64,000 nucleotides of DNA from Chara braunii (GCA_003427395.1 BFEA01000020.1:3121986-3185985), one strand, 5' to 3'. Positions 7,503 through 44,200 are shown, counted from the stretch's first letter. Numbers and translations are program-made. Notes: a model not told the origin generated them from the sequence alone.

Positions 7503-9515
7503 TTCAGAACAAATGGCCAAGTTTAGTAGGTGAGCAACAAAAACTTAATGCCTCGCAAAAAAAAAAAAAAAAAAAAAAACCTAAGGGATCATCTCCTCTT
7601 GAGGGTATCTCTCCGATGGACCAGGGACATTGGACCCCCCACACGGGAAGTGGGTCCACTGTTAAGTAGGTGAGCAACAAAACCTTAATGCTGAGCAAAA
7701 AAAAAAAAAAAAAAAAAAAGGCAAAAGGGGTTAAATAATGGCTAGGTTAGACAACTTGAAGATTTTGTTTTGGCAAAGTGAACCAAACAAGTGTTGCAAT
7801 GTAAAACAACCCACATTATGAAAGTCAAACAATGCTTTATCCCCAAAACAGAAAGGTCAAACAACAACTCATGACAACGAATTTTATTGATAACAAATTT
7901 TGTTAAAGTTGTTGAGTTCCAAGGACGAGACCTCTATCTTCAGCAAGCGGCTTTTGCCAAAGCAGCTGATGACAATAGAACGGCTTCAAAACCCTTCTCT
8001 CTGACATGACGAGTCATATCCTCGTCACAACTCGCCCATCTCAAATAGTGTTGAAAAATGCTTCCGGAATGTATGACTTGACCGACACAAAACCTGTACG
8101 TCAAGTTAATAACAAAATAAATTCATATGTGAGTTTTAAAGACAAACAACAATAAAAAAAATTCTCTATCAAATAGTCAAAAATCTACAGCATCCAAATT
8201 AACATAACACGAAGACGATACACAATCAATTGTTGAATCTGGTTTGTTCGATGTCAACACATATGACCTGTTCCAAAATATGTTGCAAGGTCGTTATAAC
8301 AATGACAGGGATGACTCCTGCGTGCATCACTGTTGATTGCTAGCGGACAACAATCTGACATTGACCAGATACTAAAGGTATAGCATTGGATGTGAACATT
8401 AATGAAAACATAGAAAAAAATAATAATTTCACAAAGCACCAACATGAAATTGGATGAAGAAGATACTGAAAAGACAAGAAAGGGAAAAAACAACCTTAGA
8501 CAACATTCAGAGGAGGAATATCCTAAACGGTGTGGTACAATTCACTGATAATTTTCGCTACTCTTTAAGGTTGTGGGTTCTTATATATAATCTCATCTTG
8601 TCTCAAACTGTCAACGAAGTCCTGGTCATGACATTTAATATGCCACGTCCTTGCCTCCACATTGACAACGAACATGACTGTTAACATCCAACCAAACGAA
8701 ACAAGAAAAAACATGGTCATAAAAAGATCTACAATCTACACTCATTTGAACATTATTGTCTAGCATTATGATATACCACTCAAGTGCATGAAGGACGAGG
8801 CAACTCAGGCAAGATATGCGAAATACCATAACACAGTTGGTCACAACAGTGGTCCGAGATGACTTGTCTGGCTTACGCCAAAAAATAATATATATATATA
8901 TATATATACACATATATTATGTCAGCTGCCAGTAAACCATAGGCAGAGAGGGAAAAGAGAAAAACAAACGAGGGGCATATATATAAATATATGAGTTGGT
9001 GAAACTCCAACAAAACAGTTTGTCACAGTCCCTCGTTTGTTGTCATTTTCCCCCTCTCTGCCCACGGTTTATCAGACAGCTCTGTTTGGCGATGTATACC
9101 ACAATGTACGTGTATGCAGCTTGCGCCTACACACGTTCACGTATTCTTGTACGTGATACGTACGGGTGTACATATACTACCGTACGTGAGAGTACGTTAA
9201 AAAAAAAAAAAAAACGAGAAAATTTGGAAAAAAAATTGAAAAAAATATATAAAAAGGAAAAACAAATTAATAAAAATCTGAAAAAGAAAGTATGTTATGC
9301 ATAATAAAAATCCACACAACTTTTGTCTGTGATTCATCACAAATCTTTTCTTTTAGATTCTTTCAATTTTATCGGGTGTTCAACTAGGCTACCAGCTGGT
9401 CCATGCAAGGGCCAAAGAAGGTCCCCAAAATAAAATAAAATAAATTAAAAGAATCCTAGGCTACCAGTCAGGCCCCACCTCGGACCCCCCCATCGCCCCG
9501 GGATACACCCTCTCC

Positions 9516-11370: not shown

Positions 11371-13524
11371 ACATTATTTTATTTTTAATTCAAATTTTGT
11401 GCAGACTTTGGAAGTGACCCTCAACCAAAAGTTATCTGGTTTGCTATTCTGCACAACATATATATTTTTTTTTAATTTTTTTTTTTTTTTTTTTTTTTTN
11501 TGGGATATGGGCAGGGACCCCCCCCGGCCCAGTTGCCTGGTCGAGCGTCCTGGGCAGGTCCCGTGCCAGCTTTGGGGACCCGAGCGGCATGGCTGGTAGC
11601 CCACAAGCTGAGGAAATAGGGAATGATTATGTTTTTTGTCTTCCCTCAATGAAAAGTAGGAAAAATAACTGGGAAGAAACCCCCCTCTTTGTTGAGGTCA
11701 TATTAATAGTGAGGGTGACTTTGTTGGTGACTTTTGCAGGCATGATTTGAAAGTAAAGGTTGCTCCCGGGCTCGGAATGATGGTATACCAGGGCATAATG
11801 CTATGCGTTTTCTGGGTATGCAAGCAGCTACTTGAGTTATCATATCTGATTCCGACATACGTATTTCCAGTTGGGGACGTGAAGTGACAGATGCAAAATT
11901 GGGCCAAGGATTTTCTACTGTGTAGCTCTACAAACCTACCCTCTCGACTTGTAGCACTTTTAGACGGCATCGTTGACTACACGTGGCGGACAAAGATACA
12001 CATAGACATATTTCAGTTAATGATAACTTGCACACGTTTGCACTTTGCTCAGCTTGAAGGGAAGACCCTTTCTTGCGAGATTGCTCAAGTGAGATTTTCT
12101 TTGACAGAGAATAAAACCACAGGCTATTTCTGGCCATAAGTGAAGTCAGCTCTAAGACCAACATGTAAACTTTTCAAACGGGCGTAACATCAGGTACAAC
12201 ATGGCTACGTATTGTCAGCCTTTGCACATCTGGCATGTCATTGTTACCAGGGATAATTTGTGGAAGAAGACCTGGTGCCAGAAGCAGCGCAATAAATGGT
12301 TATAGGTTGTGTTTGTTGTCATTGTCCGGGGATGGTTTGTGGCGTGCATGTTGGAGTCGGAACTGCATGGTCTGATGACTCTGATATACTCTGGTTGGGT
12401 CCATGCATGATGATCGTGCACTCTAGCTCACTTGTTCATCTATGCGTTGTGTCCTCATTTATGTGTCGTAAGCAAGGGTCAAAGAACAAAGAGAGAATGA
12501 GGAGGAAAACGTAAAGGAAGTTGCAAGGAGATGTGTGGAAAGTTGAGAAAGTCCGTGATTGTAGGAACACAAGTAGGACTGATTGAAAACGGTAAGCCTG
12601 ACTGATCAATAACAAGAGTTTTGATTGATCAATAGCAAGAGAATTTTGAGGCAGCACAGTTTTGGGTTAGACCTTTATGACATTTATTTTTGTTGTTTTT
12701 TTTGCTGTCTTTCTTTAGGTGTGAGTCTTAGTTTTCAATTTTTTGTAGGTCTAGAGTTAGGGAGTCTAGAAGTAGCTGGAGGAAAAGTGCGTTTGGGTCT
12801 CTTTTCATTTTTTTCAGTTGCCGGTGAAACTCTGTCAGGTTGAGGGTTGAGAGTTGTTGTGCTATCTACAATAAGAACTGTCTTTATCTTCAGGCGGTTG
12901 CTATAGCTGGTGGTTGTGACGGGCGTTGAAAGGCGCTATGCAACAAAGGTTCAGCGTTGCAGAAAGTTATCTTGGCACCTGCAATGTTTGGGGTTATGCG
13001 CTGCCATTACTTCTTGTTGGCAACCTTATTGTTCTTCAATCTGACGAGCAACTTTCTTCTTCGAGGTGGCTGGATAGTCTTCTTTTTCACTCAGGATTTG
13101 TAACGCTGCATTTCTGTGTGGGCACTGAGCTGGGGCAACTATTTTGGGGTTGCTACTTCAGATGTGGTCCAGGGAGATGATTTGGGAATTCTGCTGCTAC
13201 TACAGCCATAGCGAGGGTGATGAGGTGGCAAGGAGGAAAAAATATACTCCGAGAAACTTCATTGAACATTTGTTTTTGATTGTTCAATTGGATAATTTGG
13301 AGGACAAGGTTAATTCAGAGGAGGGGGCTGATTCATAATTCAATTCATACTTCAATTTCTTTCTTGTGTATTGAGTTTTAAGTGCATCTGTCATTCCCGT
13401 TTTCGTGTGGATATGCCTCCTTTGAGTCTTCTGTGAAATTTCATGCATGTATGAGAACGTGTGTGGTCATTGTGGATTGAGATTAAATCAAGTTGTAGAT
13501 TGTAATGAACTTTATCTGAGTGGG

Positions 13525-17000: not shown

Positions 17001-20000
17001 TTGTTAGCAAACCCCCTAAGAACTGCTAAGTTCCCGAAAAAAAAAAAAAAAAAAAAAAGTATAATCTTCGGCGAAACCCTGGGAGGGTTGATGGATGAGA
17101 GACTCCCTAAAAACGGCTAAGTTTCTGAAGAAGAAAAAGAAGAAAAATAAATGTAATCTTTGTCGAAGCCCTGGAAGGGTTGGTGAGTGGCACACCCCCT
17201 AAAAACGGCTAAGTTCCCAAAGAAGAAAAAGAAGTAAAAGAAGTGCAACGGCTAAGTTTCCGAAGAAGAAAAAAAAGAAAAAGAAGTGTAATCTTTGGCG
17301 AAGCCTTGGGAGGGTTGATGGATGGGAGACCCCATAAGAACGGCTAAGTTTCCGAGGAAAATAAGTGTGAATTTCGACGAAGCCTCAAGGAAGTTAATAA
17401 GTGACCTAGTTCTTAAAAAAAGAAGAAAAAAAAGTGTAATCTTCGGCGAAGTCCTAGGGAAATGTGATGACTGAGCCCCCTAAAATTAACCAAGTCTCCG
17501 AAGAAGAAAGAGAAGAAAAATAAGTGTAATCTTTGGCGAAGCCCTGCGGAGGGTTGGTAGGTGGCAGGCCCCCTAAGAACAAATGAGTTCCCGAAGAAGA
17601 AAAAATAAAAATTGTAATCTTTTACGAAGCCCAAGAGGGTTGTTAGGTGGAAACCCCCTCAGAACTGCTAAGTTACCCAAGAAAAAAAAAAAACCCAACA
17701 ACAAGTGTAATCTTCGGTAAAGTCCTGGAGGCTTGGTGGGAGAAAATAAGTGTAATCTTTAGCGAAGCCTTCGAGAGGGCTGATGGGTGGGAAAACCCCT
17801 GAAACCGGCTAAATTCCTGAGGAAGAAAAACAAAAAAAATAAGTGTCATCTTCGGCGAAGCCCTCGGGAGGGTTAGTGGGTGGGAGACCTAAAAAACACG
17901 GTTAAGTTATCAAGTAAGAAAAAGAAGTGTATTCTTCGGCGAAACCCTGGGAAGGGTTGACAAGTGGCAAATCCCCTAAAAACGACTAAGTTCCCAAAGA
18001 AGAAAAAGAAGAAAAATAAATGTAAACTTCGGCGAAGCCGTGGGGAGGGTTGGTGGGTGGCAGACCCCCTAAAAATGGTTAACTTCCCGGAAAAAAAAAA
18101 AAAAAAAAAGTGTAATCTTCGGCGAAGCCCTCAGGAGGCCTGATGGGCGGGAGATCCACTGAAAGCGGCTAAATTCCCGAGGAAGAAAAATAAGAAAAAT
18201 AAGTGTAATCTTTGCCGAAGCCCTCGGGAGGGTTAGTGGGTAGGAGACCTAAAAAACACGGTTAAGTTCTCGAAGAATAAAAAGAAGTGTATTCTTCGGC
18301 GAAACCTTGGGGAGGGTTGGCGGGTGGTAGACCCTCTAAAAACGGCTAAATTCCCAAAAAAGAAAAAAAAAAAAAAAAATTGTAAACTTCGACGAAGCCT
18401 GGGAAGATTTGGTACGTGGGAGACCTAAAAAAAATGGTTAAGTTTTCAAAAAAAAAAAAAAAAAAAGGGTAATCTTCGGCGAAGCCCTGGGAGGGTTGGT
18501 GGGCGGCAGACCCCCTAAAAACGGCCAAGTTTCAGAAGAATACAAATAAGAAAAATAAGTGTAATCTTCGGCGAAGCCTTGGGGAGGGTTGGTGGGTTGG
18601 AGACCCCCTAAGAACGACTATGTTCCCGAGGAAGAAAAAAAAGAAAAATAAGTGTAATCTTCGGCGAAACCCTGGGGAGCGTTGGTGGGTGGCAGATCCC
18701 ATAAAAAAGACTAAGTTCCGGAAGAAGAAAAAAAAAAAAAATAAGTGTAATCTTCGGCGAAGTCCTGGAGGGTTGGTGGATGGGAAACCCCCTAAGAACG
18801 ACTAAGTTCCCGTAGAAGAAAAAAAAGAAAATAAGTGTAATCTTTAGCGAAACCCTTGAGAGGGATGATGGGTGGGAGACCCTCTGAAAACGGCGAAATT
18901 CCCGAGGAAGAAGAAAAAAAAAAAATAAGTGTAATCTTCGGCGAAGCCCTCGGAAGGGTTAGTGGGTGAGAGATCTGAAAAACACGATTAAGTTCTTGAA
19001 GAAGAAAAAAAAATGTATTCTTCGGCGAAACCGTGGGTAAGGTTGGCGGGTGGCAGACCCCTTAAAAAGGGCTAAGTTCCCAAAGAAGAAAAAGAAGAAA
19101 AAGAAGTGTAAACTTCGGCGAAGCCTGTGGAGGGTTGGTAGGTGGGTGGCTCCCAAAAAACATTTAAGTTCCCCCCCCCCCAAAAAAAAAAAAGAGTAAT
19201 CTTCGGCGAAGCCCTAGGGACGGCTGGTGGGTGGCAGACCCCCTAAAAACGGCCAAGTTCCAAAATAATAAAAATATAAAAAATAAGTGTAATCTTCGGC
19301 GAAGCCTTGGGGAGGGTTGGTGGGTGGGAACCCCCCTAAGAATGGCTAAGTTCCCGAGGAAGAAAAAATAGTGTAATCTTCGGTGAAACCCTGGGGAGTG
19401 TTGGTGGGTTGCAGGCCCCATAAAAACGACTAAGTTCCGGAAGAAGAAAAAAAAGAAAAATAAGTGTAATCTTCGGCGAAGCCGTGAGGAGGTTGGTGGG
19501 TGGCAGACACCCTAAGAATTGTCAAGTTTCCGAAGAAGAAATAAAAAAAAAATGTAATCTTCGGCGAAGCTCTGGGAGGGTTGGCAGGTGGCAAACCCCC
19601 TAAGAACTGCTAAGTTCCCGAAGAAAAAAAAAAAGTAATCTTCGGCGAAGCCCTGGATGGGAGACCCCCCAAGAACGGCTAAGTTCCCGGGGAAGAAAAA
19701 TAATAAAAATAAATGTAATCTTCGGCGAAGCCCTTGGGAGGGTTGGTAGGTGGCAAACCCCCTAAAAATGGTTAAGTTTCCAAAGAAGAAAAAAAAGAAA
19801 AAGAAGTGTAACGACTAAGTTCCCGAAGAAGAAAAAAAAGAAAAAGAAGTGTAATTTTCGGCGATGCCCTGAGGGGGGTAATTTCCGACCGCCTAAGAAT
19901 GGCTAAGTTTCCGAACAAGAAAAAAAAAAATGAATTTTGACGAAGCCTTAAGGAAGTTGATAAGTGAACGGTCCTAAAAAATGTTAAGCTCCCCCCCCCC
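14030..20000 (-). repeat. Second array of the same ~90-bp satellite, inverted (about 65 copies)
   Basis: AAGTGTAATCTTCGGCGAAGCCCTGGGAGGGTTGGTGGGTGGCAGACCCCCTAAAAACGGCTAAGTTCCCG is the reverse complement of the array-1 monomer, closest to the variant at 5850-6330. Confidence 0.96.
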
Positions 20001-26089: not shown

Positions 26090-26525
26090 TGGAACTTCTA
26101 CCGCCGGTAACCTTGCGTTGCCGCCGTAGAATTTTCACAGCCCTTCCGCACCACCGCTGGTAAGACCGGAGTCACCGCCGAAAAATTTAGGCATCTCTTT
26201 CGCACCACCGCTGATAAAACCGTAGTCGCCGCCGTAGAAATTTTGCAGCACTTCAGTACCACTGCAGTAAAACTTGTGCCGCCACTGCAGAAATTCGGCA
26301 GCACTTCGGCACCACCGCAGTAAAAACTTGTGCCGCCGCCGCAGAAGTTTTGCAGCACTTCGGTACCACCGCAGTAAAACTTCTGCCGCCGCTGTAGAAA
26401 TTCGGCAACACTTCGGCACCACCGCAGTAAAAACTTGTGCCACCGCCGCAGAAGTTCGGCATCACTTCGGCACCACCGCAGTAAAAACCAGGACTGCCGC
26501 TGTAAAATTCCGGCAGCACTTCCCT
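26090..26525 (+). repeat. ~53-54-bp minisatellite (about 8 copies, two related half-units)
   Basis: CACTTCGGCACCACCGCAGTAAAAACTTGTGCCGCCGCCGCAGAA.TT..GCAG at ~26249, 26303, 26356, 26410, 26463, with more diverged copies upstream. Confidence 0.92.
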
Positions 26526-27926
26526 ACTATAGTGGGAAAATGGCAGACCAAAATTGGTAAAATTTGGGCCCCGGGCCCAAATCTCACAGCGCCGCACTGC
26601 CGCAGTCCCGCAGTACCACTGGGTCTGTCCCGTGGGACCAACACCAACCAAAGGAGAGAAGCAAAGTGCTCCTTGCCTTAGCTATGGCTGCCCAGTCTTC
26701 CTCTTCGCGCTCCTCTGCAGACCTCCAACTTCTTCTCCTTGCCTCAGGCAGCACCTCAGCAGCCCAGCAGCACTCAAATGCACGTCACACAATGACAACA
26801 CGAATGCTTTGTGAGGCAGCCGGGGGCAGCTGGCTGTTTTATAGTGGCTGAGGAGGGCTGGTCGTCACTCCAGCCCCCAGGCAAAATCGCGGGCTCACTG
26901 TGAGCCCTTCATCTGCCAAGATCCAAGGCTGACTGTGGCCGCACGACAACCACAACCTTAGTGTGGGGCGGTTTTTTTAACTGCTCTATTTTATTTTTCT
27001 TTTTCTTTTTCCCAGCTATCTCGGAATCTAGCGAGATAGCTACGCTCCTGCCATTTCCAAATATGTTTTTCTTTTATTTTTCTAATAAAGGGTTGAAAAG
27101 ATACAACCCTTTTCAGTTTGATGTATCTGGACCTTTTTTCCAGGGTAGATACATCGAGGAAAAAGGCTGTATCTAGCCTTTTCCTTAGTGGCCCTTTAAT
27201 TTCCAGGCTCCCTTCAAAAATGGGAGCCTGACAGTTACCTCTGGCAGAAGCACCACGTGAGGACAAGTGTCCTCACACTAAATAAAGAAAGGAAAAGAAA
27301 AAAAACTAACTTCCTAAATTCTACCGCACCTGGCTTTTACCTTGGCCAGGTGCATGCTGTTGCATACAACAACCCCCTTCCTTTTTCTCTGCTGTCCTCC
27401 CCTGAAAACGGGGAGGCAGTTGGCAAGTTGGGAGGAGTAGGTCCTCCCCCGCCCAACTCCCATGCCCCTCTCTCTGTCTCTCTCTCCCACGCGAGTACTG
27501 TGAGCCACGAGATTCAAGATCTCGTGGCCAGAGTGAGTAGGCAAAAAAAACGAAGTGGAAGCTTTTATGCTCCCACACAGTCCCAAGGACTGTTCTAGTC
27601 CTACCACGAGGCAGTTGCCTCGTTTTCGTTTTCTTTTTCTGCTTTTTTTTTTTTTTTTTTTTTTTTACAGTTTTTCAAGTTTACTTCGCTTCTTAGTCCT
27701 TTCCCGTTGCTTTCCCTTCTGGCTGTACTTCAACGGCCACGAACGGGGAGGAACAAAACAACAACAAACAAACAAAAAAAAGCAGAAAAACAAATAAAAA
27801 AAAACTTACTTGAAATTGTTGTCTGGCGGCCGCAGCAACAACAGTGGCCTTGACCACTGCTCATGACTGTATTCTTCCACGTTTCCGCGGAAGATTCATT
27901 CGATTTTGATCATCCTATACGTGGTG

Positions 27927-27996
27927 TGTAGGTAGGTAGGTAGGTAGGTAGGTAGTCTTTTTCTCCCTCTCTCTCTCTCTCCCTCTCTCTCTCTCT
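27927..27996 (+). repeat. (GTAG)n followed by (CT)n microsatellites
   Basis: Direct observation, just upstream of the hammerhead. Confidence 0.9.
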
Positions 27997-28048
27997 GTCA
28001 CGCGCGCCCGTACCTAGACGTTATTAGCGTTGGGTTCAGGTGCAATGG

Positions 28049-28106
28049 TAGACTGTCGAGGCTGCAGCCTCCCGATGAGTCGGTGAAACCCTGACGAAAC
28101 AGTCTG
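28049..28106 (+). ncRNA. Type III hammerhead ribozyme motif with a U4>C core variant
   Basis: Stem III AGACTGT/ACAGTCT; GTC cleavage triplet (cut after 28057); stem I GAGGC-TGCA-GCCTC; core CCGATGA; stem II GTCGG-TGAAACC-CTGAC; GAAA. Confidence 0.85.
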
Positions 28107-29381
28107 GCACAAGTTACCCGTTCGTTCAAAACAAACGGGTGTCCAAAAAAAAAAGGAAGAAAAATAACGGAAAAAAAAAAAAAAAATCTAAACTGAATCT
28201 AAGAAAANNNNNNNNNNNNNNNNNNNNNNNNNNNNNNNNNNNNNNNNNNNNNNNNNNNNNNNNNNNNNNNNNNNNNNNNNNNNNNNNNNNNNNNNNNNNN
28301 NNNNNNNNNNNNNNNNNNNNNNNNNNNNNNNNNNNNNNNNNNNNNNNNNNNNNNNNNNNNNNNNNNNNNNNNNNNNNNNNNNNNNNNNNNNNNNNNNNNN
28401 NNNNNNNNNNNNNNNNNNNNNNNNNNNNNNNNNNNNNNNNNNNNNNNNNNNNNNNNNNNNNNNNNNNNNNNNNNNNNNNNNNNNNNNNNNNNNNNNNNNN
28501 NNNNNNNNNNNNNNNNNNNNNNNNNNNNNNNNNNNNNNNNNNNNNNNNNNNNNNNNNNNNNNNNNNNNNNNNNNNNNNNNNNNNNNNNNNNNNNNNNNNN
28601 NNNNNNNNNNNNNNNNNNNNNNNNNNNNNNNNNNNNNNNNNNNNNNNNNNNNNNNNNNNNNNNNNNNNNNNNNNNNNNNNNNNNNNNNNNNNNNNNNNNN
28701 NNNNNNNNNNNNNNNNNNNNNNNNNNNNNNNNNNNNNNNNNNNNNNNNNNNNNNNGAGCAGCTCTTCAATATGAAGAGCTAGCCCAGGTGATTTCCCTGC
28801 CTGCGGCCTTGCAGGCTCCGCCCGTATGTGGCCTAGCAGGCCTGCCCCGGCTATGGCCTAGCAGGGCTACCCTGCCTGTGGCCTGCCGTTTACCTGCCCG
28901 TGGCCTACCCATACCGGTTAGCCGCGTGACCACGGCTTGGTCGGCCATCGAACCGGGTAAGCCTTGGCATTTGCCTATCGGCTCCCAGGCTCGAAGTCAG
29001 ACCCCGCAGCCCTAAAAAAAACAAATGCTTCCTACACCTCCTGCGTTGTGGCCCTATACTCCGGCGCAACCCTCTTTTTAGCCCATTTAGGCCCTGAATC
29101 ATAGGTAGGATAGGTTTAATTTTAACATTTCTTTATCCGCACATTCCTGCGGTTTTGACAATTCGTAGCCTTGTCGTTCACATCCGATACCTCCGGACGT
29201 CACATGCGTCCGGACTAAGTCCGAAAACTCTTAGTTTCTCAATCATAGGTCAAGTCGGAATAAACTTTTGGCAGACGTCAGTCTCATCAAGACTATTATT
29301 TCAACGCAAGAGTCGGACAACGTCCGACGTTCAAAAACACCGGCAAATACCCTTGTCAAGGTTTTTGCCCCGACATCACGG

Positions 29382-30170
29382 AACAACGTCACGAGCTTTG
29401 TAGACGACAGGGTCATACACTCTAAGACTGGTGAGACAATGGCCCAATCCATTGAAGAGTATTACCTCCGATACCCGTTTGTGGTGGAGTTTCTAATGGA
29501 CAGGGGGTCAGAGTTTACTTGTAAAGAAGTGAAGATGCTCCTAGACGAATATGGGGTAACTGTGAAATATACGACTGCAACACATCCCAAAGCGAATGCG
29601 TCAGTGGAAAGATGACATAGTACACTTACGAACCTCCTTGCGAAGTGGACAGGCGGAAGATTCATTCAATGGCCGAAGTATTTGAGGGCAACCTTCTTTG
29701 TGGAAAATGCGACTGCTAAATGAATCACGGGGTATGCGCCAGCAACACTTTGGTATGGGAGGCACGCGACATTTCCAACCGAAAGCATCCTAAAGACTTG
29801 GAGACGGCAAGACCTCGAGACTAATTTGTCATTTGAAGACCTTCTCGATTTAAGAGCACGCCAAATCGGAGCTACGAAAGATAGAATCAGGGATGTGGCT
29901 AACAAATCAGCAAATAGCTGCACCGCAGATAAGTTCACGTGAGATTGATTGACGCGCGTTCGAAGAGAGCCATTAAAGGTTGGAGATATTGTATTGTTGT
30001 ATGACTCCTCGTTAGAAAAGCAATGGTCCCGAAAGCTCGACAAGAGATGGCTCGGACCATACAGGATTGCCCGTTGTGGAGACTATGGATAATATCAGAT
30101 TGAGGAACCGAACAGGACGACACAAAAGGACTGGGTGTCATGAGGCAAATTAGCAAAATTTGTAGCACAG
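29382..30170 (+). pseudogene. pol: Remainder of the element A integrase (catalytic core and GPY/F region)
   Basis: FLMDRGSEFT, HPKANASVER, WPKYL, TGYAPATLWYGR, KVGDIVLLYD, RWLGPY; in-frame stops. Confidence 0.92.
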
Positions 30171-30310
30171 GAAGGGGTAAGTATGCATACGATAAGAATA
30201 AGATAACAAAAGGGTAATTAGGAGGTTAATATAAATTAGGAGTCAGAATTAGAGAGTTAATTGAAGAGTTTTGTTTGGTATGGTCAATGCTAAAGGTTGT
30301 AACCACCCGT

Positions 30311-30355
30311 ACTGATTCCCTTGTGTGCGTCTTGTTTTTCTCGCTTGTTCTGCAG
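30311..30355 (+). promoter_or_regulatory. Predicted 3' splice site upstream of the extra ORF
   Basis: CTGAT branch-like motif, long pyrimidine tract, TGCAG; ATG at 30366. Confidence 0.6.
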
Positions 30356-30365
30356 GCGTAACTTT

Positions 30366-32759
30366 ATGAAGACGACCATGCCGAAGGGTGGGAGGGACAA
30401 ACAGCCTCAAGAAGGTCCAGGAGGCGGGGAATCATCACGATCACATCAGCGAGACAACACTCCAATCTATGACGATGGTAGCCCAGATATGTTCATCGAG
30501 CAGTTCACGCGGCATGCGACAGACAGAGGATGGTCAAAGGGAACGATGATCCAACATTTGAGGGGTACGGGAGAGATGGGAGAGAGGATTGAGGAGTTGT
30601 GGACGCAAGGAGGGAGCTGGTTAGAAATAGAGGTGGGATTGCGGTTGCTGCAGCCATCACCGATAGGACTTGATGGGTTGCCCATTTGTATGACTGCAGA
30701 CAATCTGGACGAGTTCTTTCCAGCATATGAGGAGCACTGCAGGACAGTGGCCGTCATGAGAGAAGAGTACATGAGGAGGTCCCACAGTGGGCAGTGCCTG
30801 GGCTACGGAGAGACATCGCCCAAATTGGGCGTGCGGCGCGAGACTGGGAAGACTGCAAGGCCCAGATAAGGAGTGTCTGTGGGTTGTTTCGACACGACTC
30901 TCCAAGACCGCGAGTCGAGAGGAGGAGGAGGAGTGATTGAGTACGTGGCAGGAAGGAGACAATCTGTCTCTCGCCGATATAGAGAGGTCATTGATTTGGG
31001 GGACGATAGTCCACCTTTGTCAACCATTCACGAGACTGAGCCAGAGAGGAGAGTTACCCCTGAGAAGAAACATGAAGTGAGACCTGTTGTAGAAACTATC
31101 CTTGAGCTGGGGGACCGACCAAAGGCAGAGATGTTGGAGGAAGCGCGACCGATTGCGAATTTAGAGGAGTTGGAGACCCATTCGGAACCATCACAGTGAC
31201 CGTCGTCAGAGGCTGTTCCTGCCCCCACATCAGATGCGGCCCCTAGCAGTGTGGAGGCCGACAGAGTGATCGACACGCATCTTACGGCTGGGTTGGCATC
31301 ATCGGCAGGGGTTGCTAAGGCACCATCAACGGGTTCACCCAGAAAAGGGGCTCAAACTGAGCTAGTGGTATGTTGGGGAGCTCAGACCGAGCCAGTGGTA
31401 TGTGGGGAGACCCAATGACGAACCAGTCATCAGGCAAGGGAGACCCTACAGGAGCGTCAGGCCAGGGTAAAGGAAAGACTCGAGGAATTGGGAAGAGAGA
31501 AAGATAGGCATGAGGCAGCAGAAACACTACCAGACCCACCAGCAGATATGGGGTCGCAAGAGAGAGGAGTAGAGGCAATCTGGGCTAGATGGCTGGAGCA
31601 GAGAGACGCAGATCGTCAGAGACCTCAGGGCTTTGAATTTGTGGACATGAGGCTGGATCGTCGAGATGAGCTGATGGATTCTAGTTTTGTAGCAGCACGA
31701 AGGGCAGATCAGCGTTTGGAAGAGAAGATATGACGGCTTGCAACAACCTCTTTCGATAGGTACTCGATGTTGAGTGCTAAGTTGCAAGCACAAAAGCTAA
31801 AGATGGAAAGTCTGACCAAGCGATTGGAAAAGGTAGAGGCTGAAAACAAGTAACAGAAGGCGGCAGCCCAAGCAAAGGATGCTGAATGGGAGAGAAGACT
31901 TTGAGAGATGGAGGCGAAGATGGAGAAGTTCCAATCCACCACAGTGGTAGACTAGACCGAGCAAAGCAGGTACGACGTCCAAGGTCAAGCACTGGATGGT
32001 CTGTTTGTACAGAAGAAGGGGACGAAACCATCTCAATATCAAGGTTTGGGTAAGGTGATTATGGATCCTGCCGAGGCTAAGGCAAAGAAAGAAAGGGAGA
32101 AGGGAAACTTTGAGTTAAAGGCCCCAACAAAATTGGCCTCTCAGTTACCAATGCCTATGCAGAAGGAGGGAACGGTGGGAGAGAAGGCTCAAGTACCTAT
32201 GACAGAACCAGGGGAAGGGCAAGCAATGGAAATAACTCAGGCACCTGAGCCAGAACAGGTAGAGAGATCTTTAGACAGACTACTAGAGGCGCCCATGGAG
32301 AGGTTGATGTGCTTACCTACCTCAGCCACGGTCAGTGCACCTACCCACACACTAGGAGAGGAGGGTGCATATGGGACAGCGGCGAAGATTTGGTTAGGGA
32401 TGCCACTAGGGTTGCCCGAGAGTACGATGAGTCCTACGCTGACCATGGAGAAGGAGAGCCAGCCGTCAGAGAGGGATCTTCCTGAGATTGTTGCCGCAAG
32501 TGCTATGGAGGTAGATGTTCCCCTGGAGACGCCACAGAGGCTGGACACCCCAGAGTATGTACCACCGCTTGGCAAGCCTGGAGAGGGGATGAACTCATGG
32601 TTGGCGGGGGCAGCCATGGGAGAGTCGGTACCCATACCGACACAAGAGGGAGCCACGACCCAGGCGACAGATGCCCTCTCATCATCAACCCCTCATGAGA
32701 GGAAGAGAAAGAGGATAAGGAAGCACGAACGGGAACAGAAGGTTGCAGGCCCAAGTTGA
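30366..32759 (+). pseudogene. Extra ORF downstream of integrase (env position): Gag-capsid-like N-terminus, coiled coil, E/P-rich tail, basic C-terminus
   Basis: Fragments 30321-30869, 30873-31199, 31488-31733, 32046-32759; PIYDDGSPDMFIEQFTRHATDRGWS resembles retrotransposon Gag motifs; KRKRIRKHER at the end; no obvious TM segment. Confidence 0.65.
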
Positions 32760-34870: not shown

Positions 34871-37800
34871 TGTAGGCGTGAATACCCTTACAAGGGTATT
34901 CATGCGCATATTTGCACTTCACATAATTAGTGTCTGAGGCGATACTAGAAGCTATAATTTATATATAAGTATCACGCGGCCCACGCTCGACTCATTTTTA
35001 ATCGAACCATGGGGCGTGCGGGGGGAGAGTAGAGAGTGTGTGGGCGTGCAGTTCTGAGACGCGCGTGATGATTTTTATCTTGATATTATAGAGTCGGCGT
35101 TTCCGCCGACAAAATTTTAATTTTTGATTAAAGCTAGGAAGGGTTTTCTTTTATTGAAGTGATCGTGGTGCGTCTATGCTCATACAGATGGTGTCATCGG
35201 CAATGGTATTGCCTTTGAGCGATAATCGAACATGTGAGAGGAAATAGATCGCGAACAAGGGCTTTCGCATGGTGGACGAGGAAGCTTGGCGGTCGTGGGT
35301 TCGGCTGATAGGTCGAGGTGTGGCCTTAGAATGTTTCGGTAGACCTGTATGTCGCGTGGTAACCGCTTATATAGGTGTCCGCTAGTGTCAGACTCAGCCT
35401 TGGGTCTAACACTACTGGTATGGTAACGAACATTCATTCAAGGGATCCATGGATTGAGATCAGCACGGCAGCACAGGAGCAGTGGAGCGGCGAGGAGGAA
35501 CTTGGGGTTGAGGGTCTGGCGGGGTTACCCCACCTTGGTTTTGCTATCAACAAAGACGGAGCAAAACTGGCGGTCCCTTTTTCTCGTCGGTCGTTTCCTG
35601 ACGATTAAAATCTTTCTAAATATTTTACTATTTACCGTCGTACTATTATTATTTTTATGCTTCGACTTTCCTAGAATAGGATGTAACAATGGAATACGGG
35701 CCGTTAGTGCCCGTCACGACAGTCGAGGACCTTGAGCAAATGCCTCTTTTGACGGGCCCGTTCGGGTTCCTACGTATTCAGGATGCTGGTGAAATCCCTT
35801 TATCCCGCCCGTCTTGGAACGAGGACCGAGAAGCTCAACGTGCATGTGAGCCGGTGGGTGATTAGCTGACGAGGCGGAGTAAACCTGAGTGGCAGGGACC
35901 CTCCGCGAGGACACCGTCCGCCAACCTCAATCTGATGAGAGAGGTTTGAATCTGGGCATGACCCGTCCCACTTTTTGTTGTGTGAGGTTTGAGTATGAGC
36001 ATGCCCTTTGAAACTCGAAAGACGGCGAATGGTGCTAAGGCATAGTGGCGGAGGGCGTAGATTGTGCACATCTGCGCACATAGGATCCTTCCCCACTTCA
36101 GTTTTCAGAAGTTCCCATTTGAATCTTTGCTGCCACCACCAAGATCTGCACCGGGACCCACTTCACTCAGGCTTATGCTGCAGACTTTGCAGCAGGCCCT
36201 CGCCCTTCTACTCATTGGGGCGTCGGAATCAATGGCGCTGAAGCACCCGACTTATGCTCCGAGGCTGGCTAGGCAACCAGCAGCCTGGTACAGTTGGTAC
36301 ACCTATGAACTGTCGAAAATACAGACCGAAAGTTTACCACAAATATCATATTTTTATTATTTATTTGTTTTATTTATCTTCGTTCACTAAAAATTTTTGT
36401 GCAAGATTTGTGGACGGCGCCATGTGACCAGCGGAGTACCAAAGTGTTATTGCTCCAAACGGCCAGGGCCTTGTCCCATCTGAAAAGGTACGGCGGTGCG
36501 ACCCCTTGGAATCCGGAAGATGGTGAACAGTGTCGTGGGCACAGTCTGCCCAAAGGCACCAGTGGGAGGCTGCCGAGGTGTTTGCTGTGTGGCAGGCTGT
36601 CTCGGAAGTTGTGCACATGGAACCCTTACCCACACTTCGGTCTTCGAAGTTTCTTTTGAATATTTGCCTACCGCCACCAAAATCTGCGCTTGGAACCCGA
36701 AAGATGGTGAACTGTGTCGTGGGCACAGTTCAACAGAGGGCACCAGCTAGAGGCTGCCGCAATGCTTGCTGTGTGACAGGCTGTCCCGACAGCTGGTAAA
36801 CAAGGCATGAGCATAAAAGGGTCACGGGTACTGCGGTAAAAACCCGCAGCGATGCTGATCTGTAAATTGTCCTTCGGATCTGGGTATAGAGCGGAAGACT
36901 ACTCGAGCCATTTAGTTGTTGATTCCCTCTGAAGCTTCCCTCTGGGTAGCCGGAGCTGAAGCGAGATGCAGTCTGTGACTGCATGATCCACCAACCACGA
37001 TCTGCTGTGAGAGGTTTCAGTAGGGTAATGCCCGTTGGGCACAGTGGCGGAGGGTGCAGATTGTGCGCAGCCACTTACATGAGACCCTCTCCACTTTGGT
37101 CTTCAAAAATTCCCATTTGAACATTTGGTTACGACCACCAAGATTTACATTAGGGCTGGCCTACCGGTGCTCATGCTGCAGGTTCCGCAGCAGGCCCGTG
37201 CCCTCGATCCCGCGACGTGTGTTTGAGTCTGTCCGTTGAAAATTCGGAAGGGTGTAAGCTCTGCCTGAGCAGAGCTTGACCTGAGGCGCAGTGGAATAAG
37301 CGTGCAGTAAATACGGGCGAAAAACTAGTCGGACGGCGTTCTCTTCGGAGTTTTTCCCCAGATTGACTCAAGCCGCCAAACAACCTTCACTAGATCGTCG
37401 GGCGGTGCGCTACGAAGAAAGACTAATGGGAGGGACGCAAAGTTGTGGGGGCGTGAGCAACAGATCGAACGTGGATGTGTAGAAGAAATAGTGATAGTAT
37501 AGAGAGAGAGGAAGAACGAATTAGAGAAGAGAGGGGTAGCGCAGGAGAGCGCGGCAAGACCGGAAGGAAAACAATAGAGACAATGACGAAGGAAGAACGA
37601 ACTTGGATGCAGTTTCGTGCCAGGTACGTTCGAAGAAAGGGGGAGGAGACAACGTTGGAGCCAGAAGCTATGGCGGAATGAAAAGTTACGGCGTGCTCGT
37701 TTCCTGATAAACTCAGGCAAGACAAGGTGGTAAGTTGGGGTTTTTCTGTGTGACAAACTGATCTGAGGCATCAAATTTGGGTTCTAGAAGGCGGATTGAC

Positions 37801-41250: not shown

Positions 41251-44200
41251 ATGCATCTGCGTTCCACAAGCCTCCCGCGTCTCACATTGTCACCACGTTC
41301 AGCCGCGGCAAGTCCTGTACCCACCGTAGCGTCCTGTTTGACTTAATAAAGCAAAACCAAGGAGACACGTACGATCCGTCGGAATAGCTAGGAACCTGAG
41401 TACGCATCTTGCCATGTAGATAATCCACCACCATCTTCTCCTCATAAGGATTCGGATATCGCGCGCCCCTTAGATTCCACGGCTCGTGTGGGACCGTGTG
41501 GATCCGAATCATCGGAATTTTGTCCACATCCAGCCTCCCATGTTGATCATCATTAAAGGCGTATGCGCGATGCCTCTTCTGCATCAATCCCACCATGAAG
41601 GCCTTCTCTTGGGGTGAAAGGAAACCCGGTTCTCCAACTATCAACTTCCCTTCATGCTCATCGTTGATATGGCATGAACCATTCCACACCTGTTCTCACA
41701 TACGCCGTATCAATCCTCGTTCCCGCTCGTAGTATGCCTCCTCGTCTTCAGTAACGAGTACGGGAACTGAATGTCACTTTTTATCTACCGTCTTGTACCG
41801 CCTTTGGGAGCCCTGCTTAAGCCGTCCACTAAAAAAAGCCGGCTTGTTGTTTGTGCTTGCGCCATCGCAGAACCTCCTCTTCCACCGGGGAGTCGATAGA
41901 TCAATTTCACTTTCCCTACCTGAGGATCTTCTATGATTTGCTCCCTAAGTGCCTTGATTGCCTCCGGATCCGCCATTTCATGTGCCGCGACTATCTCCAT
42001 TGCCTTGTTTACGTCTGTGAGGCTTAGCGACAACACCTCTATTCCTCCTTCCTCCTCGGACTCTTCCCAAAGCCTCCGCCGCTCATTCTCCGATTCCTCA
42101 AGGGTGAATGAGCCGGGATTAGGCCTATTCCTCTCGCTCCCTGGACCTGTGTTCCGGCAGGTGATAACTTCATAGTTCCCACACGCCGGATCACTCATGT
42201 GCAGTATCATCATTCCATCGTGCTTATTGAAGATCAAAGTCTCCGTCCTGCACAGGAACGATCTTCCCGGGAGGATAGGGTGATCCACGTCCGGCATGAC
42301 GAAGAAGCAAGTTCTCACCCGTACCTTACCAATTTCCATGATCACATTGGATGCCGTACCACAAAAAATTGCCTTGCAGTTAACTCCATGCAGTACACCA
42401 TGGTCCGCGCGATCAATCTCCAATCCCAGCATAAGGGCATCCCTTTCCCTGATAATATTCATCTCAGCACATGTGTCCACCATTGCAACACACTTCTTCT
42501 CTTTGACCACTAAATCCACCAACTCGCATGTCGCGCACTTCCAGTCCATCCTTGTTTCGGCTTCAGTCCATCCTACCTCCCTTTGTAGGATCGTACTCAG
42601 ATGGATGTTGGGCACTAACCTCCGGGATAACCGTCCCTTCAAACCATCTCGGAGTCTCGGGGCGGACGCCAGGATATCCTTCCGGTTCATGAGGTCGTTA
42701 TGACCTTCAAGGAGCCTTTCCACCATTCTTTCTACATCAAAGCCTTCTTCTAGCCTGACTGCATACTTCTTTTTCTTAGGTACGCTTTCATGCTGGCTTG
42801 GCTCGGCTTCCTCCTGGATCCCTCTATTCTTAGCCCTTAATTCCGTTCGCCGATCCTCCTCCTGTCGGAGTCTCTCGTCCTCCGCGTCATCATCCTCCTC
42901 TTCCTCGGAACCTCCACCACTTATTTCCTACGCTCGGGCTCAGGTCCCTTTCGAAGAGGTGCCTGACTCGGCGCTTGACTAGTGCCAGCCTTACTTTGGC
43001 TCCTGGTTTGCGCCACCTGTGGTGCCCGCCCATGCGAGGTGGGTGGCCTGAACGTCATCCCCGACCTAGGGCCCGACCCTACCGTCGCGACCCCAAAATA
43101 ACCTTGCTACCCTGATGCTGATCCAGACCCAGATTCGTAAAGGAAGACTCTAGGGAGGTTGGCCTTCCATGCCTGGGCCTCCTCACACAACTCCTTTAGC
43201 CTTTGCTGGTACCTCCCCACCTTTCTCAGCAGGTCCTCCATTTTCTCCAGGATTGTCGTGACCGACTCTTCTACCTCCCCTTAGTCCTCGTCATCCGACT
43301 CAACGATTATTGATTCTTCCTTTATTGTCCCAACCTTTAATCGCTGGTTTACCTCCTCATCCTCCCCCACGATCTCTTCGACTCTCATGGGCGGGTCCTG
43401 TCTTTCTTGCCATAACCTAAACATCGCCGGGGGCGCCGACCCTGCCGTTGCTCGCCTAATGGCTTCCTGTCTGACTCCACTTGGAGTCTTTGGGTCGATA
43501 TACTTCTCAAATTTATCATATATGTCCCCATCCATGTTTGTGGAGATTAAACCAGAGAGCTCATCGCCCCGCCGCTGCTGGCAAAATCATATAGTGTGGC
43601 CCGTATTACCACAATACCAACACAAAGCATTTCGCCAATCAAAACAGGGCCGCCTGTACCCTTGGCCCCCTTCCTGGCTGCCTTGGCCACCTTGATTTAG
43701 CCCTCCTTGGCCATTCCATCCACCACCACGTCCTCTGTCGTTCCTTCCTTGGCTGCCACCTCCTCGACCTCCCTGTCCTCGACCACCATTGCCTTGCCAA
43801 CCTTGTCCTTGACCTCCTCCTCCTGCCACGCTAGCCTGCGAAGCTTGCTGCGAGGTGGGAGGCTGGGCCGTGAACTGACCTTGGGTCGCCGGAAAACTTG
43901 GTGACCCTGCACTCGCCAATGGGCCCGAATATGGGACCACCTGTCCTAAGGGAGCTTGGCCTCCTCCACACGAGTTGTAGTGATTACATCCAAGCCAAGG
44001 TGCCATTTGACAACAAGGTATCCAATGTCCACATGATGATGGCGGCCTCATTCGCGAAGGCCCTGTCGACACATGTGCAGTTGTGTCGGCGGCCGATGGC
44101 GCAACAATTGCCTATGGGATCTGTCCCTTTCCAGAGCCTTGTCCTCCGAGCAGCAAGTTACGCTGCTTGCGCTGGGCTTTGGTGAGAACTTGGAACCCCG

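Follow-up and report, generated by a model that had tools for sequence, protein, structure and literature searches.

What kind of element brought a hammerhead ribozyme motif into a stretch of Chara braunii chromosome, and is the copy found there still a working ribozyme? The stretch in question is 64,000 nucleotides long (GCA_003427395.1 BFEA01000020.1:3121986-3185985; hereafter the window, with positions counted from its first letter) and the motif, at 28050-28105, defines what we call the main locus. Genomic hammerheads are otherwise found as type III motifs in the long terminal repeat (LTR) retrozymes of flowering plants, at tens to ~150 per genome; those of Penelope-like elements, and of the animal elements derived from them, are of type I. 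The main locus belongs, as a worn member, to a very large and transcribed family of type III hammerheads, and we consider it probable, if by no means certain, that the motif lies close to the 3′ end of a non-autonomous retroelement. The locus itself is an ordinary, worn copy, and its value lies in the family to which it leads.

The motif at the main locus

28050..28105, + strand: complete type III hammerhead motif with core CCGAUGA (U4C at 28073) and a G82-U92 wobble pair; cut predicted after C28057

Read on the + strand, 28050-28105 runs AGACUGU-C / GAGGC-UGCA-GCCUC / CCGAUGA / GUCGG-UGAAACC-CUGAC / GAAA-CAGUCU (single bases are given here by the last digits of their positions, A50 being A28050). 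Stem III pairs A50-U56 with A99-U105 over 7 bp, with U56-A99 counted in as the 16.1-15.1 pair. The cleavage triplet is G55 U56 C57 (GUC), in which C28057 is position 17 and U56 pairs with A99; the triplet thus has the N-U-H form and the A15.1-U16.1 pair is present. Stem I pairs G58-C62 with G67-C71 (5 bp, with a 4-nt UGCA loop), stem II pairs G79-G83 with C91-C95 (5 bp including the G82-U92 wobble, with a 7-nt loop) and GAAA occupies 28096-28099. Helix III is open whilst loops cap helices I and II, the type III topology. The core letters are C72 C73 G74 A75 U76 G77 A78, so that of the conserved core (C3 U4 G5 A6 N7 G8 A9, G12 A13 A14) everything is present except position 4, where C28073 replaces the expected U4. 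The region therefore encodes a real type III hammerhead motif in correct register, as an earlier reading made from the sequence alone had it: that reading's three stems, GUC site and GAAA all stand, and C28073 is the only departure from the conserved core, making it CCGAUGA rather than CUGAUGA as had been noticed.

The match to the Rfam model Hammerhead_3 (RF00008), a check proposed with the sequence-only reading, scores 44.4 bits and covers model positions 1-54 of 54, with E = 1.2e-8 on 411 nt and 1.9e-6 on both strands of the full window. The score falls short of the gathering cut-off of 48.5 bits, and a default Rfam scan of the window lists nothing. The minimum-energy fold of 28040-28111 is the hammerhead fold (−25.2 kcal/mol, z −2.05, 6 of 200 shuffles as good), with the suspected continuation of stem III through GUGC/GCAC present as an outer extension. 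The same fold is kept in a 151-nt context, with a separate hairpin on each side (z −2.54, 1 of 200 shuffles as good).

A large family of related modules

Reads were mapped from runs of the same organism, four presumed to be DNA (X1-X4) and three poly(A)-selected RNA, first at 90% likeness and then at 80% likeness on 28005-28160 (two DNA and two RNA runs); runs X5-X20, whose shares are small, were left aside. Depths summed over contigs are not copy numbers, and overlapping contigs may have been counted more than once. At 90% likeness, the summed DNA contig depth is 283,467 in the bin 28066-28106, 10,799 in the preceding bin and 6 in 27984-28024. At 80% it reaches 458,102 (X1) and 709,660 (X3) in the core at 28083-28088, against 30-33 across the upstream flank (28005-28046) and 47-52 (X1) or 358-497 (X3) downstream (28113-28142). 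Contigs identical to the main locus have depths of 11.8 and 14.3, giving ratios of module to locus of ~39,000 and ~50,000. C. braunii thus probably holds copies of the module by the tens of thousands, judging from read depth. For a genome of about 1.75 Gb, the presence of two copies in 64 kb would agree with a total in the order of 10^4.

Alignments with the paralogs end where helix III begins, at 28050, and on the other side at 28106-28112, so the shared unit is a ribozyme module of ~62 nt (28050-28111), and it is this module alone that most paralogs have in common. Loose ends before 28050 were found in 39 and 49 contigs and in 316 and 173 reads. The paralogs are whole type III hammerheads with the canonical CUGAUGA core. 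In one group the DNA loose-end consensus before 28068 reads ..GGC AGACTGTC GAGG TTCAA joined to CCTC CTGATGA.. (83 and 90 contigs), with a helix I of 4 bp and a loop 1 nt shorter than at the main locus. A second subfamily reads ..GGGGATTCTGC joined to AGACTGTT GAGGGTTCAGCCTC.. (316 and 173 RNA reads, with agreement of 0.86 and 0.81). For the paralog flank ..GAAAC CGTTAGTC ACAG.., a type I layout with a minimal helix III was tried and rejected, the strand after GUC being unpaired with that before CUGAUGA; the full type III layout was seen later.

Loop 1 varies in length among paralogs, and the subfamily that shares its length with the main locus mostly has U at position 17 (5814 of 6147 depth, X1). 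The other common variants are loop changes or replace a Watson-Crick pair by a wobble, G-U resulting from 28104 C>T and, in some contigs, from A59G; pairing is thus retained in the variation seen. Since no double compensatory change was seen among the paralogs, the support that variation lends to the structure is modest.

Two departures from the family consensus mark the main locus as slightly decayed. The question of whether U4 is the paralog consensus, raised with the sequence-only reading, has a clear answer: T stands at 28073 in over 99% of DNA depth (257,400/258,939 and 367,186/370,483) and in the bulk of RNA reads (603/686 and 1631/1674 in one run, 362/426 and 1114/1121 in the other). 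At 28092 the paralogs have C (359,079/397,270, X1), which makes G82-C92 a Watson-Crick pair; the T of the main locus is a CpG-to-TpG change that turns it into the G-U wobble of stem II. Because the paralogs carry both U4 and the G-C pair, the main-locus copy is a slightly decayed, minority form. We would predict it to be weakened by U4C together with the deamination wobble, and silent.

Transcription of the family

In the 80% mapping, the module is found in 3323 of 16,654,260 and 2169 of 16,176,506 RNA reads. The first mate lies on the minus strand in 72-73% of these (2393.8 versus 925.3, and 1572.5 versus 594.8). This skew, together with variants confined to a single orientation (28094 A>G, for example, at 26/146 versus 0/115), indicates that the libraries are stranded and that one orientation dominates; it would be the sense strand of the ribozyme if the common library protocol applies. 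A single subfamily, recognisable by T at both 28104 and 28107, dominates the RNA (loose ends behind 28111 number 2015 and 1352); in DNA it is a minority (14-23% at 28104). Poly(A)-selected RNA therefore contains the family, mostly in one orientation, whilst the main-locus copy was not seen expressed: no RNA read reached 99% likeness to it in either mapping (classes of ≥99%, 95-99% and lower likeness 0/7/286, 0/38/760 and 0/2/422 at 90%; 0/3 and 0/0 at 80%).

Relative to the core, reads spanning the predicted cut are 3.3-fold less frequent in the majority orientation (0.079 versus 0.263 in run X22, 0.064 versus 0.215 in X23). We do not count this deficit as cleavage, because the window's copy of the dominant RNA subfamily is truncated inside the ribozyme.

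As a separate observation, 28094 A>G is confined to RNA reads with a plus-strand first mate (26/146, 27/221 and 32/226 versus 0/115, 0/273 and 0/150) and is almost absent from DNA contigs (12.5 of 308,749 depth). Editing of the RNA within helix II could account for it, as could a rare paralog that is expressed.

A second copy in the window and its insertion pattern

The window holds no second full hammerhead copy. A truncated relative, missed by blastn-short, was found by a mismatch-tolerant pattern search (8995-9016) and nhmmer, and lies in the following arrangement:

8889..8908, no strand: (TA)10 outside the inverted partner
8924..8976, − strand: inverted, more deeply 5′-truncated partner, 3′ module only (nhmmer E 0.021), head to head with the copy at 8991
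8977-8992, no strand: TA-rich spacer between the two 5′ ends
8991..9027, + strand: second family copy, 5′-truncated inside the catalytic core (starts AUGAG), by pattern search and nhmmer
9028..9085, + strand: 3′ module of the second copy, matching the flank consensus of the RNA-dominant subfamily

That nhmmer alignment joins 8991-9041 to 28075-28126 (E 5.7e-4), and the copy at 8991-9027 carries three CpG-to-TpG/CpA changes (GUUGG, CCAAC, CAAAAC). The flank consensus of the RNA-dominant subfamily matches 9028-9047 (+) and 8957-8976 (−) with 3 mismatches in 20, and none of 100 shuffles reaches two matches. The arms at 8924-9085 fold into a long hairpin (z −7.81, 0 of 200 shuffles as good). The region is thus two 5′-truncated family copies set head to head in a microsatellite.

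According to Craig et al. (2021, PMC8557442), Penelope-like elements are marked by 5′ truncation, an adjacent inverted 5′-truncated copy and insertion into microsatellites, and the Chlamys elements reach very high copy numbers in C. braunii and prefer (TA)n, (CA)n and (CT)n. The window shows a truncated copy with an adjacent inverted truncated copy at 8924-8976 (−) and 8991-9085 (+), and microsatellites near both copies: (TA)n at 8889-8908 and 8977-8992, and (GTAG)n with a CT-rich tract at 27928-27995. The RNA runs show AT-rich loose ends before 28065, 28074 and 28075, which fits many more copies truncated inside the ribozyme beside TA-rich DNA.

A proposed element and the points against it

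We observe the family of type III modules; that it cuts its RNA, what such a cut would do and which enzyme moves the element are proposals. Transcribed in the sense direction, the ribozyme would fold and cleave behind the last base of the GUC triplet (C28057 at the main locus). The cut would trim the element RNA or bring it to unit size, and a reverse transcriptase supplied in trans would copy that RNA back into DNA. This enzyme would most likely be Penelope-like, of the Chlamys type: we favour it over a Gypsy enzyme because of the truncation, the inverted partner and the microsatellite at 8924-9085.

A number of points weigh against this reading. Depth summed over contigs does not count copies, the DNA nature of X1 and X3 is presumed, and no full-length member of the family was seen in the reads or the window. 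The Penelope-like pattern comes from one locus and from loose ends of reads, and nhmmer finds no inverted partner at the main locus. The hammerheads of Chara Penelope-like elements are type I, unrelated in sequence and built on other stems, whereas the motif described here has type III topology and a helix III of 7 bp. In the consensus library of PMC8557442, five core or flank motifs of the family have no match and a sixth, a 9-letter piece of the core, has two, neither in a Chara consensus. Which strand is sense depends on how the libraries were made, and the protocol is not recorded; no pile-up of RNA read ends was flagged, so there is no cleavage evidence from that side, and the main locus has no reads of its own. 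Finally, U4C need not be lethal, to go by the natural viroid variant in the part of PMC3088659 that describes it.

Other explanations

That the motif sits in the solo LTR of an LTR retrozyme or other Gypsy-dependent element, as in flowering plants, and processes the transcript of that LTR was in essence the proposal of the sequence-only reading, and we now regard it as unlikely. In its favour are the type III topology, a stem II and loop 2 near an Rfam consensus made up largely of plant and viroid sequences, the place of Chara among the streptophytes, Gypsy fragments nearby and a block at 27000-27600 that is repeated (depth 270-5200). Moreover, the parts of PMC4918200 drawn on here describe most plant genomic hammerheads as isolated motifs in solo LTRs of 300-400 bp. 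Against it, the sequence directly beside the module is low-copy over 45 nt upstream and 30 nt downstream (depth ~30-50 in X1 versus 458,102 for the module), and the window contains no second LTR copy: BLAST finds no recurrence of 26500-30300 elsewhere in the window except low-complexity runs. The right-hand side of a direct-LTR layout would be hidden by a 548-N assembly gap that begins 102 nt downstream. A 12-mer pattern for the tRNA-Met primer-binding site has two matches in the window with two mismatches each, at 12149 and 49925 (16 and 22 kb away), where 2.89 are expected by chance. LTR elements do not produce a 5′-truncated copy with an inverted partner in (TA)n such as the second copy, and plant genomes have at most 152 hammerheads in Additional file 1 of PMC4918200, against an order of 10^4 here. 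The placement inside a solo LTR, antisense to the element, therefore finds no support, with low-copy flanks, no LTR partner in the window and no primer-binding site nearby; nor does the processing of an antisense transcript from U3, as the locus yields no RNA reads of ≥99% likeness and no pile-up of ends. Of the analogy with plant retrozymes, the type III hammerhead survives, whilst the motif's relative in the window shows a Penelope-like pattern of insertion and not that of an LTR. A small separate element, the alternative offered at the time, agrees better with these findings than an LTR does.

Rather improbable in our view is a satellite-like, head-to-tail tandem repeat of the kind known as non-LTR retrozymes in animals, whose transcripts would be processed into circles of unit length and of which the window would hold no more than stray fragments. 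The very high abundance would suit such a repeat, as would one back-joint, from 28099 to 28070, and animal non-LTR retrozymes are linked to Penelope-like elements in the portion of a preprint used here (10.64898/2026.07.22.740005). Yet that joint occurs in just two reads of X22, a poly(A)-selected run; among the contigs listed, which are 431-953 nt long, each holds one hammerhead piece; both copies in the window are solitary; and the animal elements carry type I motifs.

There is very little room for the main-locus copy as a working, locus-specific ribozyme that acts on a host or antisense transcript despite U4C. Its stems are all intact, the GUC site is present and the fold is stable in context. 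A natural U4C variant, as described in the part of Perreault et al. (2011, PMC3088659) consulted, has lower activity in vitro but supports viroid infectivity in vivo, so the change is tolerated in at least that one viroid. However, among 293, 798 and 424 mapped RNA reads none has ≥99% likeness to the locus and at most 38 have 95-99%, the second mapping adding 0/3 and 0/0; the copy departs from the family consensus at a core position and through CpG decay; and no gene lies nearby, with no Pfam matches at 26-29 kb among the window's 117 open reading frames (ORFs) of at least 100 aa. A chance look-alike, for which the score below the Rfam cut-off might speak, is refuted by the window E-value of 1.9e-6 and by the thousands of relatives in C. 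braunii whose core is canonical, and its probability is practically nil.

Comparison with known systems

Among known systems are the Penelope-like elements of Chara, with which the proposed element shares the host, a sense-strand ribozyme near the 3′ end and a high copy number, as well as 5′ truncation, an adjacent inverted truncated copy and microsatellite targets. It differs in the ribozyme. Penelope-like elements carry a type I or minimal hammerhead in a pseudo-LTR, and File S2 of PMC8557442, in the part used here, gives those of Chlamys-2/-3/-5_cBra and PLE-X1_cBra as type I with a helix III of 2-3 bp; the motif described here is type III. Six further family motifs were sought in that paper's library: two have no match and four have one or two each, the ones shown being in unrelated-looking sequence. 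Among ORFs of at least 100 aa near both copies, Pfam reveals no reverse-transcriptase ORF linked to the family.

Plant LTR retrozymes, according to the parts of Cervera, Urbina and de la Pena (2016, PMC4918200) considered here, have type III motifs in LTRs of 300-400 bp, a tRNA-Met primer-binding site, a polypurine tract and 4-bp duplications; the layout compared here has direct LTRs of 300-400 bp around a non-coding centre of 300-600 bp. Like the Chara family, they carry type III motifs with a canonical consensus core in a non-coding, transcribed streptophyte repeat, and their members share little beyond the ribozyme. Unlike them, the Chara family shows neither paired LTRs nor a nearby primer-binding site in the window, and one of its copies lacks the 5′ part of the ribozyme and faces an inverted partner in (TA)n. 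Its copy number would lie about two orders of magnitude above 152, the highest count per plant genome in the table of Additional file 1, from which Chara is absent.

The metazoan non-LTR retrozymes are, like the Chara family, abundant non-coding hammerhead repeats, and in the portion of the preprint by Li et al. (2026) used here they are thought to ride on Penelope-like enzymes. They form tandem arrays of type I motifs in animals, however, whereas the Chara copies seen are dispersed, type III and algal. A 2020 review likewise assigns type III to plants and infectious circular RNAs and type I to animals, in the part relied on here (PMC7761336). The type III hammerheads of viroids and satellite RNAs resemble the motif in topology and core, with U4C a known natural deviation that is less active in vitro (PMC3088659, in part), but these are replicating circular RNAs, whilst the main locus lies in chromosomal DNA and differs from the majority form of its own family.

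Type III hammerheads that share helix II (GUCGG UGAAA .. CGAC) were also seen in two viral contigs of 19-21 kb (53.6 bits, above the gathering cut-off) and in two metagenome contigs of 2.47 kb (GUA site, 45.9 bits), which may be viroid-like or ribozyme-bearing RNA elements. Pattern scans of the viral and metagenome contigs gave 3 and 4 loci, or 5 distinct stretches, two contigs being present in both collections. As members of the Chara family these loci were rejected: stem II is shared but the flanks are dissimilar, which makes them other elements.

L001:1496-1550, − strand, and L003:1480-1534, + strand: viral/metagenome hammerheads
L004:1480-1534, + strand, and L006:1368-1422, − strand: viral/metagenome hammerheads

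Cervera and de la Pena are said to have described the metazoan non-LTR retrozymes in 2020. No report of a type III hammerhead family in Chara was found in the literature, a search that did not extend to the Chara genome paper or repeat databases and in which full-text queries on Chara returned, besides irrelevant papers, Craig et al. alone; the family appears to be unreported and to differ from both known kinds of hammerhead-bearing retroelement. We put forward tentatively, as a possibility somewhat short of an expectation, that C. braunii carries tens of thousands of type III modules on a retroelement that moves in the Penelope way, with 5′ truncation, an inverted partner and microsatellite targets. 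If so, this would be a third kind of retrozyme, with a ribozyme topology of the plant type and mobilisation machinery of the animal type, in a streptophyte alga near the root of the land plants and at copy numbers ~100 times those of any known plant. A charophyte family with an order of 10^4 type III copies and Penelope-like insertion would join the two worlds of genomic hammerheads, would bear on the origin of plant retrozymes and perhaps of viroid-type ribozymes, and would offer a large natural alignment for the survival of ribozyme modules in decaying repeats.

Surroundings of the main locus

27887..27904, + strand: 18-nt piece matching integrase 29653-29670 (17/18), within the very high-copy stretch 27861-27942
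27928-27955, no strand: (GTAG)n, followed by a CT-rich tract at 27956-27995
27928..27995, no strand: microsatellite pair, a possible insertion target given the microsatellite preference of Chara Penelope-like elements (PMC8557442, in part)
28000..28049, + strand: low-copy upstream flank with its own hairpin, depth 30-33; paralog alignments break exactly at its end, at 28050
28106..28126, + strand: downstream stretch (GGCACA...), still homologous to the family 3′ module (nhmmer 8991-9041 versus 28075-28126, E 5.7e-4)
28114..28207, + strand: perfect hairpin (28115-28141), then an A-rich run to the assembly gap
28208..28755, no strand: assembly gap of 548 N, starting 102 nt downstream of the motif and hiding the sequence that follows
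29253..30100, + strand: decayed Ty3/Gypsy integrase with in-frame stops (rve, E 7.4e-6)

The motif begins 54 nt past the two microsatellite tracts, in agreement with the ~50 nt noted earlier from the sequence. Between the repeated block at 27000-27600 and the motif lie T/A runs, the short integrase-like piece and the two microsatellites. The stretch 27861-27942 has a DNA depth of 17,311-18,041 and is present in RNA too; by virtue of its 18-nt match it is probably a stray fragment of Gypsy integrase.

The window is mostly retrotransposon debris, with matches to gag, protease, reverse transcriptase, RNase H and integrase, and Pfam identifies no host gene among the 117 ORFs of the whole window. 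ORFs of at least 100 aa between 26 and 29 kb have no Pfam match, nor do those near either hammerhead copy. All 47 matches of the gag-protease ORF at 41788-42927 (−) are Chara braunii proteins, the best with 99% identity over 89% of the query, as are both matches of the RNase H ORF. These matches identify the window as C. braunii or something almost identical, and overturn an earlier guess at a rust fungus, made when Basidiomycota came out as the commonest group in a protein atlas. About 200 nt past the decayed integrase, a 188-aa open frame at 30303-30866 (+) has no Pfam match and may be the gag of the next element.

Three further features of the window deserve mention. At 27000-27640 (+), ~14 short, mostly perfect hairpins with stems of 8-11 bp form a chain with a minimum free energy of −248 kcal/mol, where shuffles give −169.9 ± 6.2 (z −12.66, none of 20 as good), and the block is itself repeated in DNA run X1 (depth 270-5200). 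Tandem repeats of ~107/54 nt, rich in GCAGCACTTCGGCACCACCG-like units, occupy 26108-26540. Amid retrotransposon debris at 36697-36921 (+) there is a fragment resembling eukaryotic large-subunit rRNA (RF02543 positions 816-953, 38.9 bits, below the gathering cut-off).

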